Source of the DNA: a virus
Lineage: Duplodnaviria; Caudoviricetes
Strand: one strand, 5' to 3'
Virus record (IMG/VR): IMGVR_UViG_3300040985_001289
Location: 1 to 63,710 of that record
DNA length: 63,710 nt
Below, piece after piece: positions 30,941-47,353 of the stretch. Within the stretch, counting starts at the first letter, position 1. Every line of letters starts with the position of its first letter. The position numbers were made by a program, and so were the translations under genes. The notes beneath the pieces are model-generated. The model was not told the DNA's origin and did not search any database. It saw nothing but the letters and a program-made list of their open reading frames with translations.

Positions 30941-31390
30941 ATGAAAGTTCATAACATTATAAAGTTAACAGAAAACTTTGACTTTGATATTATCTCAGCA
31001 AGGTTTACATCACATCACTTGCAAGTGAAGAGCAATATTAGAACTGCAATTGACGGAGACAAGAAAGCTTTTACGGGTTGCGATTTGAAACATATTGCAC
31101 CTTACACTTATGAATTGACAGGTTGCCGGATTGACGTAGAAACAACTTTCGGATATTTTAGCAACTAAATAATTAGATTTAGCCTTTGAAATTTGACAAC
31201 ACAAACAACGGAGAATGAAATGGAAACAAGAGAAAAAGAATACAGTGAACTATCGGACAATGAAAAGAAAGCGCTTCGAGAATATAGGAGCTGGGTTAAA
31301 TCTGACGCGCCACACGAGTACAGAATGAACATGATAGAAAGTTGCTATAAAACATTACAAATTTTAGGTGTGGAAAGTTTCGTAAATTAA
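30941..31390 (+). CDS. Two small early hypothetical proteins (30941-31168; 31220-31390)
   Basis: AGGAG/GGAG RBS before each ATG. Confidence 0.55.
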
Positions 31391-31455
31391 TATCGAAACT
31401 CCCTTCGGGGAGTCTATCGGAGTTAGTTACTTCGATACTGACGAGATAAACTAAC
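31391..31455 (+). ncRNA. Hammerhead ribozyme, type II with pseudoknot
   Basis: TATC-GAAA-CTCCC(TTCG)GGGAG-TC^-TATCGGAG(TTAGTTA)CTTCGATA-CTGACGA-GATA; downstream AACTAA pairs loop TTAGTT; cleavage after C31414. Confidence 0.9.
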
Positions 31456-31528
31456 ATAGTGCCGGAACAAGAAAGCAGGTTCGGGACATTTGAAGTACAT
31501 ACAGTTTAATAAGTGAATAAACCATTAC

Positions 31529-31576
31529 AGCTTGGTACGGTTAGAAGTATATCACGTTCAACTCGTGAACCAAGCT
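31529..31576 (+). ncRNA. Mini tRNA-like element 1 (acceptor-like stem + T-arm, no anticodon arm)
   Basis: AGCTTGGT/ACCAAGCT stem; TCACG-TTCAACT-CGTGA T-arm; ACGG linker. Confidence 0.6.
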
Positions 31577-31607
31577 CAAGCAGTCAATTTACATTTTAGG
31601 AGTTATT

Positions 31608-32207
31608 ATGGAAACGCAAGAAATTACAATATTTGACATTGAAGAGCTTTCGGAAGAGTCACAAGAGAAAGCCTACACAGACTGGTTGCAAAACTTTGAG
31701 TACTTTCACAATGAAGACAATGAAGCAAGCCTTAAAGCCTTTGCAGACGTTTTCCCTATCAAAGTTAAAGACTACTCATATGGATACTGCAATTCGTTTA
31801 TTAACTTTGAATTGATTTATGACACTATTCAAGGTAACGATATCAGAGAATTCAAGGGATTGAGACTCTTGAAACATATCGTAAATAATTACTGGAATGA
31901 TTTGTTTGAAGGTAAGAAATATTACGGGAAAGAGTACAAAAAGTTTAGACAATCCCGAATTCACTTTGAACAGAAAATGCTAACCGGATTCTATCTTGAT
32001 TATGACCTTATGCAACCAATTATTGACTTTCTCAAGAATCCAAGTGAGCATACTGACATTGAAGACATTATGAATGATTGTTTACAAGCTTGGTTATCTG
32101 CTTGCAATTCGGATTATGAAGCTTGTCAGAGTATGGAATATTTCAAAGACACTTCAGAGGCAAACGGTTGGCAATATTACGAGTCTGGCAGGTTCTTTTA
32201 TAAATAA
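31608..32207 (+). CDS. Acidic early hypothetical protein
   Basis: 199 aa, AGGAG RBS. Confidence 0.7.
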   Translation: METQEITIFDIEELSEESQEKAYTDWLQNFEYFHNEDNEASLKAFADVFPIKVKDYSYGYCNSFINFELIYDTIQGNDIREFKGLRLLKHIVNNYWNDLFEGKKYYGKEYKKFRQSRIHFEQKMLTGFYLDYDLMQPIIDFLKNPSEHTDIEDIMNDCLQAWLSACNSDYEACQSMEYFKDTSEANGWQYYESGRFFYK

Positions 32208-32215
32208 ATCAAGGT

Positions 32216-32274
32216 AGCTGATAATACGGAATATTGAGAGGGTTTCAATACTGGATCGTAACCAGGTATCAGCT
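32216..32274 (+). ncRNA. Mini tRNA-like element 2
   Basis: AGCTGATA/TATCAGCT stem; ACGG linker; inner hairpin TATTGAG/TTCAATA; CTGG-ATCGTAA-CCAG T-arm variant. Confidence 0.5.
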
Positions 32275-32304
32275 CTAATTAGTCAACAGAAAAGAGAGGT
32301 TGTT

Positions 32305-32687
32305 ATGTTAGTAACTAAAAACAGAAAACTTTACAACACAGAAACAAGAGAGTATGTGTATTGTAGGCAATGTTCTGAAGATATCAAGAGCAATGAACTG
32401 GCAGAAAGTCTTGACAGCAAGCAAGAGAGCTGTATCTGTGACGATTGTCTCGTAAGTCAAGGCGGTTAACCATTAAAAGAGAGGTTGTTATGAAAACGAA
32501 AACAGATTTCACGATAGTGATAAACGTCACTGCAAAAGATTATTTCGGGAGCGAGAGAGCTACGCTATTAGCCTCAGCATTAACGAGGAGAGCTGAGGAG
32601 AATGTATCTCACTTAGGAGCAGAGGTCAAGGTAACTCTTGGTAATCGGTTGCCATATGCTGACGAGATAGCGTCATTAAAGAGATAA
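32305..32687 (+). CDS. Two small proteins (32305-32469 Cys-rich, 54 aa, not in track; 32490-32687)
   Basis: Both preceded by identical aaaagagaggttgttATG. Confidence 0.55.
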
Positions 32688-32783
32688 CCTTCAAGCCTGG
32701 TCGCACAGCTACGAGAGGAGGTTTGGAGTATTAAACAACTAAGCTACCGAGTCCAAAGTCTCGGTAAAATAAAGGAGTAAGAT

Positions 32784-33089
32784 ATGAGAGAGCAAGTAAA
32801 TTTCAGCGACTTTACAGACAGATTTCGCACAATGGACAGAGACGAGAGTTTCAGTTATGAAGGTAAGAAAGCATTGTTTGACTATCTCGAAGAGTACGAG
32901 GACTCCTGCGGAGAGGAGATCGAGCTTGACGTAATAGCCTTATGTTGTGACTTTACAGAGTATGAAGACCTCGAAGAGTTTCACGGGGTTTATGAAGAGA
33001 GCGAGTATCCTGACCTTGATACAATTAGAGACAATACGACCCTCATTGAGATAGCGGGGAGTGACGGTTTCATAATTCAAGACTTTTAA
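32784..33089 (+). CDS. Very acidic small protein (DNA-mimic candidate)
   Basis: 31 D/E versus 7 K/R in 101 aa; AAGGAG RBS. Confidence 0.65.
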   Translation: MREQVNFSDFTDRFRTMDRDESFSYEGKKALFDYLEEYEDSCGEEIELDVIALCCDFTEYEDLEEFHGVYEESEYPDLDTIRDNTTLIEIAGSDGFIIQDF

Positions 33090-33153
33090 TAATAACCCAC
33101 GCATTCGGCTCCTGGCACGTTGTCGGGAGCTTAACTAACTAAAGGAGCGGATT

Positions 33154-34309
33154 ATGTACGCAAGAAAAACGAGAGACGAGTGGCAATTACATATTAATTA
33201 TGGCTATGGTGACGGGTGGGAACATGAAATCTCAGAGGACACTCGCAAAGAGGCAATTCAGAGACGCAAAGAGTACAGAGAAAACTGTCCTGAATATCCG
33301 GTTAAAATTGTATGCCGGAGAGTTGCAATATGAAGGTTGTCGAGATTAATGATTGTCAATTCTGCCCTTATAGAAACGGGGCAAATCCTGGACAGGCTCA
33401 TGAGTTGTGTATGAAGTCGAAAAGGGAACTTGAGTTATTTAGAGACGGAGCGGGCTTTACAATCCCAACTCCTGATTGGTGCGAATTAAAAACTCTGACA
33501 GATAGGGAAAAATTCGACCGGGAATATCATAATAACCCAAAAGTAGAGAAAGATTGCCAATGTGCTCAATGTAAAGAGGATAGGGAAGGTCAATAGGTTG
33601 CATTTGGTCAGAATTCTTTTAGATACCAAAGCTAAAAACTAACTACGGAGGAGAAATGAACTGCGATTGTTCAATAGACATAGATAATGAGGAGAGTCCT
33701 CAAGTTTACAGGGAAAAGATTGTTACCGCCTACAAAACCCACTGTTGTGTCGAGTGCGGAGAAATCATTACAAGGCGTAGTAAATATCAGGATGTGAGTG
33801 GATTATGGGAGGGGCGGTGGGAACACCACAAAACCTGTTTAACGTGTAAGACAATAAGAGAGGAATATTGCTCTGGAGGGTTTATCTTTGGTGAACTTGC
33901 AGAGCAACTCTATGAGTGTTTTGGATTTGATTATCGGGAGGCAGGATGAACGCATTATCAACTGGAGGATGGTGTTGCATAAACTGTATCTTGTGCGATA
34001 AGTTAGTCGGTGATATCAAGACGTTCGAGAAAGAGGGTGATGAGATTTCCCCAGTCTGTGATGATTGCGCGGAGACTCATATCATCCTGGACGGTTACGA
34101 GGAGGTAGAGAGTGGAATATAAAATAGTCGCGGGAACTCAAGGAAATGTTGAAGAGAAAGTGACAGCACTTCTCAAGAGGGGTTGGGAGGTGAGTGGGAG
34201 TCTCAGAATGTTGCTCGTTCCGGATTATAGATCTACTCTTGATATGCTGTGGTATGCTCAGGCAATGATAAGCTACAAAGAGGAACGACCAAATAAAGGA
34301 GGAGAGTGA
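33154..34309 (+). CDS. Cluster of small early hypothetical/Zn-finger proteins (33154-33333, 33330-33596, 33656-33949, 34112-34309)
   Basis: Consecutive ORFs with GGAG RBS or ATGA overlaps; CxxC pairs in two of them. Confidence 0.55.
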
Positions 34310-34743
34310 AAATGGAGATGCTTAATTTTGTCAATAAAAAACTATGTGAGGATTGCGGAGGGGAGTGCTGTAAGAATCTACCCGGGTCATGCTCTCCGAA
34401 TGACTTCAATAACTCATTGGAGCGAGTCGTTGACGCAATCAAGAGCGGTAGGTATACAATTGACTGGTGGGAAAATCTGGAAGAGAATGGTGGATTAAAT
34501 GGTTACTTTGTGCGACCTGCAATCAAAGGGAAAGAGGGAAAAGTCAAAGACCCCACTTGGGGTGGGGGTCACTGTACATTTTTAACTGATTCAGGTTGCG
34601 AGTTGAGCGACACTGATCGACCTGAAGGTTGTCGAATGCTCGAACCTTCTACTGGTGCGGATTGTGAAATTCACGGAATGGGAAAACATGATTCTGCAAT
34701 TGCATGGATTAATTTTTACGACCTTCTGCACGACTTTAATTAG
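34306..34743 (+). CDS. YkgJ-like Cys-cluster (Fe-S/Zn) protein
   Basis: 'CEDCGGECCK...CTFL...GC....RPEGCR'. Confidence 0.7.
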   Translation: MKMEMLNFVNKKLCEDCGGECCKNLPGSCSPNDFNNSLERVVDAIKSGRYTIDWWENLEENGGLNGYFVRPAIKGKEGKVKDPTWGGGHCTFLTDSGCELSDTDRPEGCRMLEPSTGADCEIHGMGKHDSAIAWINFYDLLHDFN

Positions 34744-34853
34744 CAAAATGAGGATTAGGTAGGGCGAGGGTCTAAAGATCGTTTAGGGGTGTCTTAACGC
34801 GACGTTCAGGGACACTTTTTAACAAACGCAGGATATAAACATTGGAGGGAGTT

Positions 34854-37021
34854 GTGAGTAAGGAAACATATCAGGAGTATTCATTTGCCGAAGAATTTAT
34901 GAGGGATACGAGAAATATGCTCCACGAAATTTACGAGCTTCGGGAAGAGGTCGAGGAGTTGCGAGAATACAAAAAGAGATACACAGCGTTATTAGATAGT
35001 TCAATTAGTCACGGTCAGAAAATGTTGGGACAAGTTGTTACATTAGCGATGAAGGCTGATTTATCTAAACTAAAGGCAGAGGATTTCCCTGCATAACGCA
35101 GTATGCCTCAGCCATCGCAAGGGTGCAACCTAAAAACATCGGAGTCTATCATGTGCAAATAGATACCTAACCCCTCCCAGAACGGTTAACGCGAGTTCGA
35201 TTCTCGTACTGGGAGCTAATCGGAAACATTAACAAGGAGGATAGGATGACACGAGAGGAAATCCAGGAACTGAGAGATCTGATCATGGAGAGACGTGACC
35301 TTGACGGATTTGAGGCGTGTGGAGTGATCGGAAAGTCCGTCAACAAAGAGGCTCGCACAGTGTACGGATGGATGTACAAGGCTCCGTTGCCACTTCGGAA
35401 GACACAGCGGAAATTGGAGGGGATGTTGAAACGAGAGAGGAGGTTGGCTGATGCCACTATCTAAAAATGACATTCGGCAACGGATGCAGAATGCAGAGGA
35501 TTGGATGGAGGTTTATGCAAATCGCTCGGCAGATCCGGACACAGTAGGCGAGGACATTCAACGGAATTTGGATCTCTGGACGACACACGAAAAGAGGTAT
35601 AATCGTCTTTATGACGAGGTTGAGTACGGTATTAAATCAGGAGGGGATAGCCATGAGTAGAACTCAAGGCATGTGGAATCGTGTGCTGAATGTCGCATTG
35701 GTTATGGCGATAACGGCAGTGGCTGTAATATATTTAATCGGGAGTGTAAAATGACTGACCAGAATTGGAAATCGGTTGCGGAGGACGGGTTGCCGGAAGA
35801 GGGGAGAAATATGCAGGTTAAGGCATATTATAAATTTGTGCAAGAACCTACATATTTGTTTATTGATGATATCTGGAGATGTGAGCATAAGGGGATTTGG
35901 AATAATGTTTTAAACCCTGATTACATCACCCACTACCGATACATCGACGAACCTGAGCAAATAACAGAGTCCCCCAAATTCAAGATGCTGAAGATGCGAC
36001 ATGACATTGACAATCTCGCTTTCATGTTAAAGGAGCATTGCGAGTCTCACCCTGAATCGGTGACGGTGAAGGGGTTTGAGGATTCTCCCCTTACTTTGGA
36101 TCAGTGCGAGGTGGGGATGGAGTTGGAGTGCATAAAATATCCTTCTATTCCTAATGCCATTATTGAGAATATTAGTGGTTCTTACATAGATACCCACTCT
36201 TTTCGCATTCCAAAATCCGGTTTAAAATCTTACAGCATCCACAAGCCAGCCCCTGCGGTGGTGCATTATATCGGAAGTTCTGATAATAATCCAGAGTCAC
36301 CGTGTGGATTAGATTACGAGGGAGTAGTCTTATATCTTTTTGAATGCGACTGGAGCCTCGTCACCTGTGCCGACTGCCTGAAGCACAAGCCGGAGACTCT
36401 GAAGCCGAGTGATTGTGTCGGGCGGAAGATTCGGATTATATCAACGGACTTCGAGGGTGCAATGAAAGGATGGGAACGTCATTTTACAATCGGTGGCACT
36501 TATGCATGCTCTTCTGGAAGAGCGAGTAAAACTATTGCAGTATATAACGGCACATCGTACTATTCTTTCAACGCCAAAGACCTCGAATGTTGCGAGCTTG
36601 TCCCCGAGGAGATGATCGAGGTTCCGAAGTTAGAATGGGATAAACTGCAATATGCTCTAAAACAAGTAACTGTGAAGATCCGGGCGTTGGATAAAATGTT
36701 GGGAGGTGGGAAGTGAATTACAAAGTAATACTTGAATCAATATTACTTGTGCTGGCGGGAATATTGATTGCACTTTTTATCGTGATGTTTTTTGCTACGG
36801 ATGACTGTGCAGTTCTCACCATAAGGTGTGGTACGGGTAATGTGTCGTCAGATCGCAATGACTGGATAATGCCAAATATCCTTAACTACTGCAAAGAAAC
36901 CCTTAATGAATCTGGATATTTCAAGCTTGAGTGGCGTGTCCCTGAGACAGGAGATATAGATTCGCAATTGTTCTGGTACGACAAAGATTTATCACAGGTC
37001 ACACCATGCTCTATATTATAG
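34854..37021 (+). CDS. Cluster of hypothetical proteins (34854-35096, 35246-35464 HTH-like, 35451-35660, 35751-36716 with DUF551-like start, 36713-37021 membrane-anchored)
   Basis: Co-oriented ORFs with RBS; 'WKSVAEDGLPEEG' DUF551-like. Confidence 0.5.
35174..35215 (+). ncRNA. Mini tRNA-like element 3
   Basis: CTCCCAG/CTGGGAG stem; AACGGTTAAC linker; GCGAG-TTCGATT-CTCGT canonical T-arm. Confidence 0.6.
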
Positions 37022-37049: not shown

Positions 37050-37083
37050 AATACCCCATCTGATTAACTTTGGATGGGGTATT
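37050..37083. terminator. Bidirectional terminator between convergent gene blocks
   Basis: aataccccatc/gatggggtatt inverted repeat at strand switch. Confidence 0.75.
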
Positions 37084-38070: not shown

Positions 38071-39029
38071 TTCTTCCTCTTCCTGTATTTATTAATCTTC
38101 CTGAATCTCGGCAACTCCAACGCGTAGAGGTCAGATAACCGTTGAACCTCGTCCGGTTGCCCCAACGTGTACCGAGCCTGAATCGCCTTAACGAGTTGAC
38201 GTTTGATTATTGTGCGAGTTGTCATTCTCCCAACGTATCCCGCAACCGGAATGACTTGTTCAGGATCTCGGTGGCTGAGTCGATTGACTTCTGAGATACA
38301 CGGTCAGTATTCTTTAACTCCTTCAGGTACTTAACATGTGTCCCCGTCTCTTTCATGTTCGCGGATATCACAATTATCGCAACTTCCCCGATGATTTCCT
38401 TGACCTTGCACCTTTGGCTCTTTGTCCTGAACTCGGCAGGAATAGCTCCATTGTGGCGTAAGTCTGCGTCAACCATCATACCAATTTCGCATTCACTTCT
38501 TTCCATTGTTTCGCCCTTTATTTAAGAATTAACATTATCACTAATCCCGCAACACACACACACCATAGCACCACTCTGACAATTTTCCACCGCTTCTGTT
38601 GTGCGAACCACTCGTCGGAATTACGACGGTACTTTGTCATCATTTGCCTCCAAATAGGTTACGCACTCTGATAAACAGCGGGCGAGAGATTCTATTAGGG
38701 TTGATCTCAAGAAAGTAAATTTAGAGTTGTCTGTCTTCCCAAATGTGATTGTCACATCCCACCCAATATCAAAATAAAATGAATGGTAACCTCCTGATTT
38801 AACAGCCCCATCCTCAATCAACTTCTCCAGCACAGAGAAGAGGAAGTCGTGGGTGAGTTTATCCTCTATTTGAGTTATATGGGGATTCTTCACCATCCAC
38901 TCACCCATAAATTTCTTGAGCTTTTTTAATATCTCAAGTGCCTCCTCTGTGGCAAGGAAAGGGGTTGGTTTTCCAAGCCATGCATTAGGATCTCTTCGCA
39001 TGGCTTTTTCTTCTTTAATTAGAGTATCT

Positions 39030-46346: not shown

Positions 46347-47277
46347 TACGAAATTGCGAATTCGACGGAGTTTATACCGTCACCCAAGACTGTGTATACG
46401 TCAGCGAATGTTGCTCGTTCGGTATCGTTTGCATGTGCAAATCCATAAACATCAAAGTTGTATGCGTTGCCTCCGATATAAACACCAGTTGCCGTCGATG
46501 TCCCTTTCTTTTTGCAGAATGGAACTACACCAATCTGTGCCTTGATAAATGTAACACAGTTTTTTGACAGAAGCCCGTCCCAGTCATTCTTGTAAGTCAT
46601 TTGTTACTCCGTTTGGTTTACCCGTTAAGGGTGGTTTATGTTATTAACAATTCAGCCCATCGAGCAATATGGCTGTTATTCCAAACCACTTCTTTCGTGC
46701 CAAAAATCGTTGGGTGAACATCTGCTTTGATATCTCGCTTCAGATCCATTCGGGTTTCAATGCTGTTCTTTTTTAATGCTTTGACATTTTCCTTCCGACA
46801 GAACAATATCACCCGTCGATAAAGGTCATTCACAACTTTGCGAGATTTGTTTTTCTTCCAGCCTTCCCTGTCTAAGTACTTTCTGTTTGCTGGTTGGTTC
46901 TTGGTGCTTCGCTTTGTTTTCTTGCCCTGCGTTGTACCTTCTGACATTTCGTGCCTCTTTATAAAATGTTATACCGAGTCCTCGTATTCCTGATTCCGGT
47001 CTTGGATGAGAAGGTCTGACTCGGCTTGGTCGGCTTGCTCTGCTTGTGTGCGTAGATCATAATGTGAACTAAAACACTCTGCTATCTCGTGGAATAAATC
47101 ATGGTGCTCATGGAAGTCTCCATCAGAGTAGTTGCTCTTGAAGTGTTCCATCAGGGATTCACATAGTTCGATTAGCGGATAATCCCTTCTCCGTTCACTG
47201 CAAATGTCATCTAAGCCAACAATTAGACTTTCGTGTACTTCTTCAGTCTGCGACATTTCTTACTCCTTTGTTAATGT

Positions 47278-47353
47278 TGGTGGCAGTGGGTTGAATCGAA
47301 CAACCGTCTTTGTCCTTGTTAGGGATTATGCTCCTCCACTGAGCTACACTGCC
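47278..47353 (-). tRNA. tRNA, anticodon AAC (nominal Val), distorted anticodon stem, encoded CCA
   Basis: GGCAGTG/CACTGCC acceptor, GCTC/GAGC D-stem, GGTTG-TTCGATT-CAACC T-arm, ACCA end; 76 nt. Confidence 0.85.

Follow-up and report, generated by a model that had tools for sequence, protein, structure and literature searches.

The t-elements of plant mitochondria are transfer RNA (tRNA)-like structures whose edges coincide with mapped messenger RNA (mRNA) ends and which carry a non-encoded C or CCA, according to Forner et al. (2007, PMC1920247). Ribonuclease (RNase) P, RNase Z and the CCA-adding enzymes read the elbow of tRNA and its 12-layer length, and the tRNA-like processing of the 3' ends of long non-coding RNAs is a further case of such a cut signal, as described in PMC4810234. 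In phages, hammerhead ribozyme arrays on either side of genes were proposed by Perreault et al. (2011, PMC3088659) as a means to divide long transcripts into mRNAs the length of a gene.

The present analysis concerns three tRNA-shaped elements without anticodon, called here mini-tRNAs e1, e2 and e3, in 63,710 bases of DNA from a marine phage. This DNA (the window) is the whole of the IMG/VR virus record IMGVR_UViG_3300040985_001289, whose completeness is estimated at about half. Judged from sequence comparison, the elements belong to a real, conserved RNA family which is present in unrelated phages. By analogy with the systems above, they may be cis signals at which host RNase P and RNase Z would cut an early polycistronic phage mRNA into units, a reading to which a probability of about one half is given.

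Architecture of the three elements

The first-pass annotation had placed three such elements in this region, and all of them are found where it put them (Table 1). Element e1 has eight outer pairs, a linker of 15 nucleotides (nt) beginning with ACGGTTA, and a T-stem of 5 base pairs (bp) with the loop TTCAACT, directly on the 3' strand. Element e2 also has eight outer pairs; its linker contains ACGG and an extra hairpin, and its T-stem of 4 bp carries the loop ATCGTAA. Element e3 has seven outer pairs, a linker with ACGGTTA, a 5-bp T-stem with the loop TTCGATT, and an A-A layer adjoining the T-stem. The T-arm had been described as stacked directly on the 3' strand: this holds for e1, but e2 and e3 each have a single nucleotide, unpaired or mismatched, in between. 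The stem had been given as 8 bp because the base before CTAA pairs with position -1 in e1 and e2 (31576 with 31529 in e1). When this base is counted as the discriminator, the seven layers of the acceptor and the five of the T-stem make the 12 layers of tRNA. The three elements all lie in intergenic gaps of the + strand, and the distance from the acceptor end to the next ATG is 31–32 nt.

The bare shape (a 7-bp stem and a 4–5-bp hairpin with a 7-nt loop) is common, being present at about 30 places per strand of the window. A strict descriptor, which adds to this shape the letters "xTC" within the loop and an A[AC]GG near the start of the linker, has three matches in the window, all on the + strand; in 200 Markov-1 random sequences the mean is 0.035, with one match in 7 of the 200 and three in none, a chance figure which is flattering because the descriptor was written after the elements had been seen. 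The independent support comes from comparison: the relative phage, the IMG/VR family and covariation. Folding of the three single sequences gives z = -3.8, -2.4 and -1.8.

The elements lack the D-arm and the anticodon arm of a cloverleaf. ARAGORN in bacterial mode, lowered threshold included, calls no tRNA at any of them; in mitochondrial mode it calls e2 alone, taking it for an "mtRNA-Leu(gag)" without D-arm whose anticodon stem is weak (window 32217-32275). Rfam has no family match at the elements, and no tRNA (RF00005) match in 31000-35600 at E values up to 10. Neither transfer-messenger RNA (tmRNA) nor bacterial Y RNA is matched in Rfam at the elements, and the second domain of these RNAs would not fit there. 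A promoter reading was rejected: the spacing from the loop to CTAAT is 14–15 nt, and the sigma-70-like consensus scan finds nothing at e1 or e3 and only a 9/12 match which overlaps the start of e2. The elements were not taken for terminators either, as no T-run comes after them.

Conservation in a mosaic relative

Two metagenome contigs, L002 and L003, represent a mosaic relative of the window phage, with blocks 82–99% identical to the window and different genes between them. Element e1 is retained in L002, where its linker is shorter by 1 nt and one G-C pair has become G-U. Element e2 is retained too (L002 3413-3471), and its T-stem shows two compensatory swaps, C-G to U-A and U-A to C-G, at window positions 32251/32265 and 32252/32264. 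The extra hairpin of e2 is identical in the two phages, though the T-stem differs by four bases, and the linker changes from ACGG to AAGG. In the relative, the slot of e3 (L002 6416-6470) is taken by another element, alike in architecture and unrelated in sequence. One more member (L002 1638-1685) lies directly behind the relative's copy of a probable hammerhead ribozyme, before two genes which are absent from the window.

The gene content of the window and of L002 diverges at the borders of the elements and their leaders, and the gene behind e1, which encodes a protein of 199 amino acids (aa), is absent from the relative. The two phages exchange early genes as cassettes. The leader behind e1 (window 31572-31602) recurs in L002 (2753-2783), without an element, before an unrelated 107-aa gene. 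In L002 4080-4133, the gap before a 101-aa gene, an outer stem and an inner hairpin next to its 3' strand have the layout of a mini-tRNA with an 8-nt loop; the homologous gap of the window has a different fold.

A family in other phages

Further members were sought in IMG/VR with a pattern made of sequence only: ACGGTTA, a gap, the loop UUCRAYU, a gap and CTAA. The scan returned 82 stretches, and 84 instances of the first two motifs were examined in 80 loci. Pairing around the loop is bimodal, with at most two pairs in 67 instances and at least five in 10, and this distribution is an unbiased sign of a real family. An acceptor stem of 6–7 bp stands in register in 8 of the 10 well-paired instances, which yields 8 further contigs with a G+C content of 32–37%, compared to 43% for the window. 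A structural descriptor shows a second, divergent copy in one of these contigs (L008).

Building a covariance model had been proposed in the first-pass annotation, and the scan now run does find a conserved family in other phages. Model R1, built from 7 members, gives 52.5 bits to e1 and 61.1 bits to e3, its best match, and detects a second copy in contig L071 at 48.7 bits. The search of five whole virus records with model R2 gives one to three matches in each. In an alignment of 11 members fitted to the model, 96.9% of the cells are paired, against 54.6% in shuffles, and both sides vary in 11 of the 12 pairs. For covariation the score is 1.115, compared to 0.258. None of 500 shuffles reaches these values, and slid controls remain at or below 0.16.

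The exact pattern of e3 has no match in IMG/VR, and the narrow family pattern has none in 185,579 species genomes. A wider pattern has 15 matches in the same genomes, of which 13 are chance and two are structured, both in metagenome-assembled genomes (MAGs) of Odoribacter. The element found there (L095 1821-1859; also in L096) lies 17 nt before the gene of a 713-aa Mu-type transposase; a CI-like repressor is encoded to one side, an AAA ATPase and a DUF3164 protein to the other, an ensemble that indicates a Mu-like early operon. The locus has the appearance of a transposable prophage in a Bacteroidales bacterium, which hints at the hosts of the AT-rich branch of the family. Since the members come from phages of 32–37% and 43% G+C and from a Mu-like prophage of a Bacteroidales MAG, the family is not a curiosity of one genome.

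A BLAST search of GenBank phages with two family members returned nothing that covers at least 80% of the query; the matches are mostly T-arms of real tRNAs. The best one, in coliphage St11Ph5, was rejected with model R2, which gives at most 13.6 bits and matches the T-arm only. This Escherichia phage (L110, MG208881), a cultured N4-like coliphage, has at 700-2050 an unannotated 1.4-kb stretch behind a tRNA-Ala gene, with five T-arm-like motifs. Within it, a 64-nt element (1143-1206) has an 8-bp acceptor stem, a T-arm and an encoded CCA, and neither ARAGORN nor Rfam calls a tRNA there; it may be another kind of tRNA-like RNA, in a phage that is tractable.

Shared anatomy and position

The 18 elements now collected share the shape while their stem sequences differ. 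The first-pass annotation had noted this constancy of shape within the window phage, where it is confirmed, and it extends to the relatives. The linker contains GG in every one of the 18, mostly as A-N-GG-UU-A. The motif ACGG, described as always present, is not the conserved unit: AAGG or ATGG stands in its place in relatives, and the invariant part is GG alone. The T-loop has 7 nt and is of the UUCRA type, with UC at loop positions 2-3 in 17 of the 18; e2 and two elements of relatives deviate in the loop, with A or C at position 1 and U at position 5. Position -1 is A in 15 elements. The discriminator is followed by CTAA in 15 of the 18, a feature imposed by the search in eight of them and free in six of the seven elements of the window lineage and in L008a. 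Wobble pairs count five G-U against one A-C, and thus pairing favours the sense RNA. An acceptor, a T-arm and a linker with GG correspond to the top half of a tRNA; the anatomy and the covariation agree with the earlier proposal of tRNA mimicry, as far as this top half is concerned.

Position is as constant as shape. Every element lies on the coding strand, among small co-oriented open reading frames (ORFs), and is followed, 15–33 nt past the acceptor end, by an ATG which opens an ORF of at least 37 codons (18/18). In all seven elements of the window lineage this distance is 30–33 nt and a Shine-Dalgarno sequence is present; elsewhere it is 15–26 nt and the leaders are rich in A and U. On the upstream side, a stop codon often abuts the element.

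Genuine phage tRNAs occupy equivalent positions. The window has on the minus strand a full-size tRNA-Val (Table 1), whose leader (47254-47281, minus strand) shares with that of e3 (35216-35248, + strand) a 14-nt run ending in the Shine-Dalgarno sequence. This common run suggests copying or exchange of leaders along with their tRNA-shaped element. In contigs L042 and L013, the bases behind a tRNA-Arg are A and CTAA, and a short leader then runs to an ATG.

Genomic context and neighbouring features

Near-identical DNA to that of the window is found in seawater metagenomes; stretches of the region that the public runs leave uncovered, and the small word shares of runs X6-X17, do not count as evidence here. 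The + strand between about 26.9 and 37.0 kb carries about 20 small genes, mostly of no assignable function, and is closed by a strong terminator-like hairpin (Table 1). The minus strand carries the structural genes, including that of the major head protein, and genes of DNA metabolism (C5 methylase, ERF, YqaJ nuclease, helicase loader, HNH endonuclease). The product of the 199-aa gene (window 31608-32207) belongs to PHROG 10310, which has no assigned function, and has only distant phage homologues, in Brevibacillus phage Sundance and Pseudomonas phage UAntarctica. No close relative was found in IMG/VR with the 199-aa, 347-aa and 80-aa neighbour proteins, and a 4-kb region used as a DNA query has no match among GenBank phages.

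The hammerhead which the first-pass annotation had mentioned next to e1 is probably genuine. It reaches 34.0 bits (E 3e-4) over the full Hammerhead_II model, below the gathering score of 37, and its counterpart in the relative (L002 1489-1555) reaches 30.7 bits (E 1.5e-4) under the same gathering score. The core is kept between the two, with a change from C to A at a free core position (31442), and one stem is replaced by a different stem which is also paired.

All + strand gaps of more than 55 nt between 31.3 and 35.3 kb contain a hairpin, even those without a mini-tRNA (Table 1). The hairpin at 33600-33632 has CTAA behind it, as the mini-tRNAs do, although it shows no stronger fold than shuffled sequence. 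A T-run stands behind the hairpin at 34781-34823, which has the look of an internal terminator and is kept in L002. On the minus strand, a 70-nt stretch within a 52-codon ORF (38107-38176) has a loose acceptor and hairpin shape with ACGGTTA. It is kept in the relative (L002 9957-10026, minus strand), where the small inner stem is retained and the loop is changed. The resemblance may be due to chance, or the 52-codon ORF may be no gene.

Table 1. Positions of the mini-tRNAs, their leaders and other RNA features in the window
Feature	Position	Strand	Details
Hammerhead type II-like ribozyme	31391..31455	+	Rfam RF02276; 73 nt upstream of e1
Mini-tRNA e1	31529..31576	+	Acceptor 31530-31536 : 31569-31575; GG 31539-31540; T-arm 31552-31568; discriminator 31576
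Leader behind e1	31577..31607	+	31 nt, Shine-Dalgarno sequence, to ATG 31608 of the 199-aa gene
Mini-tRNA e2	32216..32274	+	Acceptor 32217-32223 : 32267-32273; GG 32228-32229; T-arm 32251-32265; discriminator 32274
Leader behind e2	32275..32304	+	30 nt, begins with CTAA, to ATG 32305
Gap hairpin, not a mini-tRNA	32745-32766		In a + strand gap
Gap hairpin, not a mini-tRNA	33107-33131		In a + strand gap
Gap hairpin, not a mini-tRNA	33600-33632		In a + strand gap
Gap hairpin, not a mini-tRNA	34781-34823		In a + strand gap
Mini-tRNA e3	35174..35215	+	Acceptor 35175-35181 : 35208-35214; GG 35184-35185; T-arm 35191-35207; discriminator 35215
Leader behind e3	35216..35245	+	30 nt, begins with CTAA, to ATG 35246
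Strong terminator-like hairpin	37050-37083		Closes the + strand gene block
tRNA-Val(AAC)	47278..47353	-	Full size, CCA encoded; ARAGORN; Rfam tRNA 49.4 bits; 21 nt before ATG 47256

Proposed role in mRNA processing

The proposal builds on the observed structure, conservation, covariation and position of the elements, and on the slot which they share with real tRNAs; recognition and cleavage by tRNA-processing enzymes, and an insulating effect, would be added to these. Each element would fold as the top half of a tRNA, with a 7-layer acceptor stacked on a 5-layer T-stem, and its T-loop would dock on the GG-containing linker, which would substitute for the D-loop, the GG taking the part of G18-G19. 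RNase P would cut at the 5' edge (predicted at 31529/31530, 32216/32217 and 35174/35175). The cut of an RNase Z-type enzyme would come behind the discriminator, with 31576, 32274 and 35215 as the last bases before it. Such cuts would leave the upstream message with an end close to its stop codon or at it, start the downstream one with a defined leader of 15–33 nt, usually with CUAA first, and set free a minihelix of 40–60 nt. Each unit made of an element, a leader and a gene could be expressed independently of its neighbours, which would suit the cassette-like exchange of early genes between relatives. The presence of a probable self-cleaving ribozyme in the same operon suggests that the transcript is built to be cut. 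It can also be speculated, from general biochemistry, that the CU after the discriminator could pair with the RNA of RNase P while avoiding the block which CCA imposes on RNase Z.

Several observations weigh against this role. Several members lack position 7:66 or have a mismatch there. CCA is encoded in the tRNA-Val of the window but in no mini element. No tRNA-processing enzyme is found among the 87 window ORFs scanned against Pfam, so that the proposal depends wholly on host enzymes. That the block containing the elements is an "early" operon is read from gene content. A 630-nt contig from an RNA library (run X17) spans the e1 of the relative, from 445 nt upstream to 114 nt downstream, and thus uncut RNA or carried-over DNA exists, although assembled contigs cannot show ends. 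The IMG/VR pattern imposed ACGGTTA, the UUCRAYU loop and CTAA, so that 8 of the 18 elements provide no independent observation of these features, and the 11-member alignment retained members for being paired. Model R1 misses e2 and the members e2r, e3r and L008a, and detects e0r only at E values of 0.06–0.4; R2 likewise misses the e2 type. R1 is thus limited to the ACGGTTA/UUCGAUU subtype. Two loci (L023 3622-3661 and L013 6113-6157) have the ACGGTTA linker, a perfect T-arm, CTAA and ATG without any acceptor pairing, and are either decayed copies or a shorter subtype.

The elements could instead work uncut, each being a folded "bumper" at the 5' edge of the ribosome-binding region which keeps upstream sequence off the leader, or a protection against decay, the upstream cistron being shielded from 3' exonucleases or the downstream one from decay that depends on the 5' end. 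The short fixed spacing to the start codon in all 18 cases, the plain hairpins at equivalent places in the other long gaps of the operon, and the RNA-library contig that runs over e1 are consistent with this idea, which is nevertheless rather unlikely. A plain hairpin would be enough for stability or insulation, whereas the GG, the T-loop sequence, the 12-layer length and the discriminator with CTAA are conserved and would be left unexplained, as would the real tRNAs in the same slot. These tRNA-specific parts argue for punctuation of the tRNA type, as do the shared slot, the probable ribozyme in the same transcript and the precedents of t-elements and hammerhead arrays. Alternatively, the main product could be the released minihelix, which would work in trans as a small RNA and, in the manner of a decoy or sponge, bind factors which hold the elbow or the acceptor end, such as defence nucleases, toxins that modify 3' ends, or the processing enzymes of the host itself. 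Its shape is indeed the minimal substrate of enzymes that read the acceptor end and the elbow, and several copies per genome lie in early-type regions. Yet only one to three copies per genome are detected, an RNA without anticodon arm would be of no use against anticodon nucleases, the acceptors lack sequence conservation and form no identity set, and the tight coupling to the next start codon would be needless for an RNA acting in trans. This fixed place argues that the primary role is in cis, and a role as decoy is improbable. Both activities could be combined if the excised mini-tRNAs, which would then be a class of phage gene not recognised before, received a CCA tail, the elements being insulators in cis for cassette swapping while the abundant top-half mimics would occupy or mislead in trans the factors that read the elbow and the acceptor, for instance 3'-end toxins or the tRNA maturation of the host; this double duty, trans half included, is doubtful.

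Two further explanations were weighed. The elements could be decaying remnants of tRNA genes with internal deletions and no function, a view that recalls the phage tRNAs in the same slots, the resemblance of GGTTA and the T-arm to leftovers of a D-loop and T-arm, and the two acceptor-less copies. Decay would not make unrelated sequences converge on a single architecture, produce compensatory changes between close strains and strong covariation, or lead the relative to replace one member by another rather than lose it. This view was already disfavoured and has very little probability. It is just as hard to believe that the elements act as DNA, as short conserved boundaries where gene cassettes recombine. 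The homology between the window and L002 does break beside elements and leaders, with the 199-aa gene in one phage only, and the same element precedes different genes in L027, L042 and L055; but stem sequences vary among members and thus offer little homology, pairing is kept by G-U pairs which only the sense RNA has, leaders recombine without an element too, and any functional element that is conserved should form an island at which mosaic borders fall.

If the elements are indeed processing signals, tRNA punctuation extends beyond organelles, and phages have shrunk the signal to a 40-nt minihelix placed one leader-length before start codons. This would provide a rule for the cutting of early operons and for the context-independent expression of newly acquired genes. 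For virome annotation it would mean a new RNA family, which current tRNA finders and Rfam miss. The elements would also be a compact natural part for operon design and a defined substrate for the minimal determinants of RNase P and RNase Z in vivo.

Comparison with known systems

Anticodon-less elements made of an acceptor and a T-arm in phage operons are not described in the main texts of the literature searched. The known type of signal to which the elements would belong is the tRNA-like processing mark.

Bacterial Y RNA (YrlA) and tmRNA also combine acceptor-like and T-arm-like parts and a mimic of the D-loop with a domain that is not an anticodon arm, but they are stand-alone non-coding RNAs with a second functional domain. 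In phage T7, RNase III sites lie between the early genes, so that an early polycistronic mRNA is cut by a host enzyme at structured intergenic signals, as proposed here; the enzyme is a different one, and the T7 sites are long irregular hairpins without tRNA features. The promoter-stem-loop (PeSL) cassettes of T4-type phages join an early promoter to a stem-loop and flank exchangeable ORFs. They resemble the mini-tRNAs in the exchange of cassettes at their borders and differ from them by the promoter, since the consensus scan shows no sigma-70-like site at e1 or e3 and only the 9/12 match at the start of e2.

Mitochondrial tRNA punctuation and the long non-coding RNA case, mascRNA/MALAT1, likewise place a tRNA-shaped cut signal for tRNA-processing enzymes within a longer transcript. 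The signals are full cloverleaves in these cases, whereas here the signal is an armless minihelix of a bacterial virus. The hammerhead arrays of prophages, as presented in PMC3088659, are RNA-cutting signals between small phage genes, and one probable ribozyme of this kind is present in the operon studied here. Such ribozymes cleave themselves and require no host enzyme, while the mini-tRNAs would depend on the RNase P and RNase Z of the host.

The closest analogues are the t-elements of plant mitochondria. As described by Forner et al. (2007), t-elements lie within mRNA precursors, fold like a tRNA and keep a conserved T-arm, and the same is found in the phage elements. Their cleavage is attributed to RNase P and RNase Z, and real tRNAs serve in the same way at other genes. 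By the same description, t-elements are organellar, non-canonical cloverleaves of about the size of tRNA, while the phage elements have 39–57 nt, no D-stem or anticodon arm, and stand 15–33 nt before start codons. For the phage elements cleavage is a prediction, and the comparison implies no homology.

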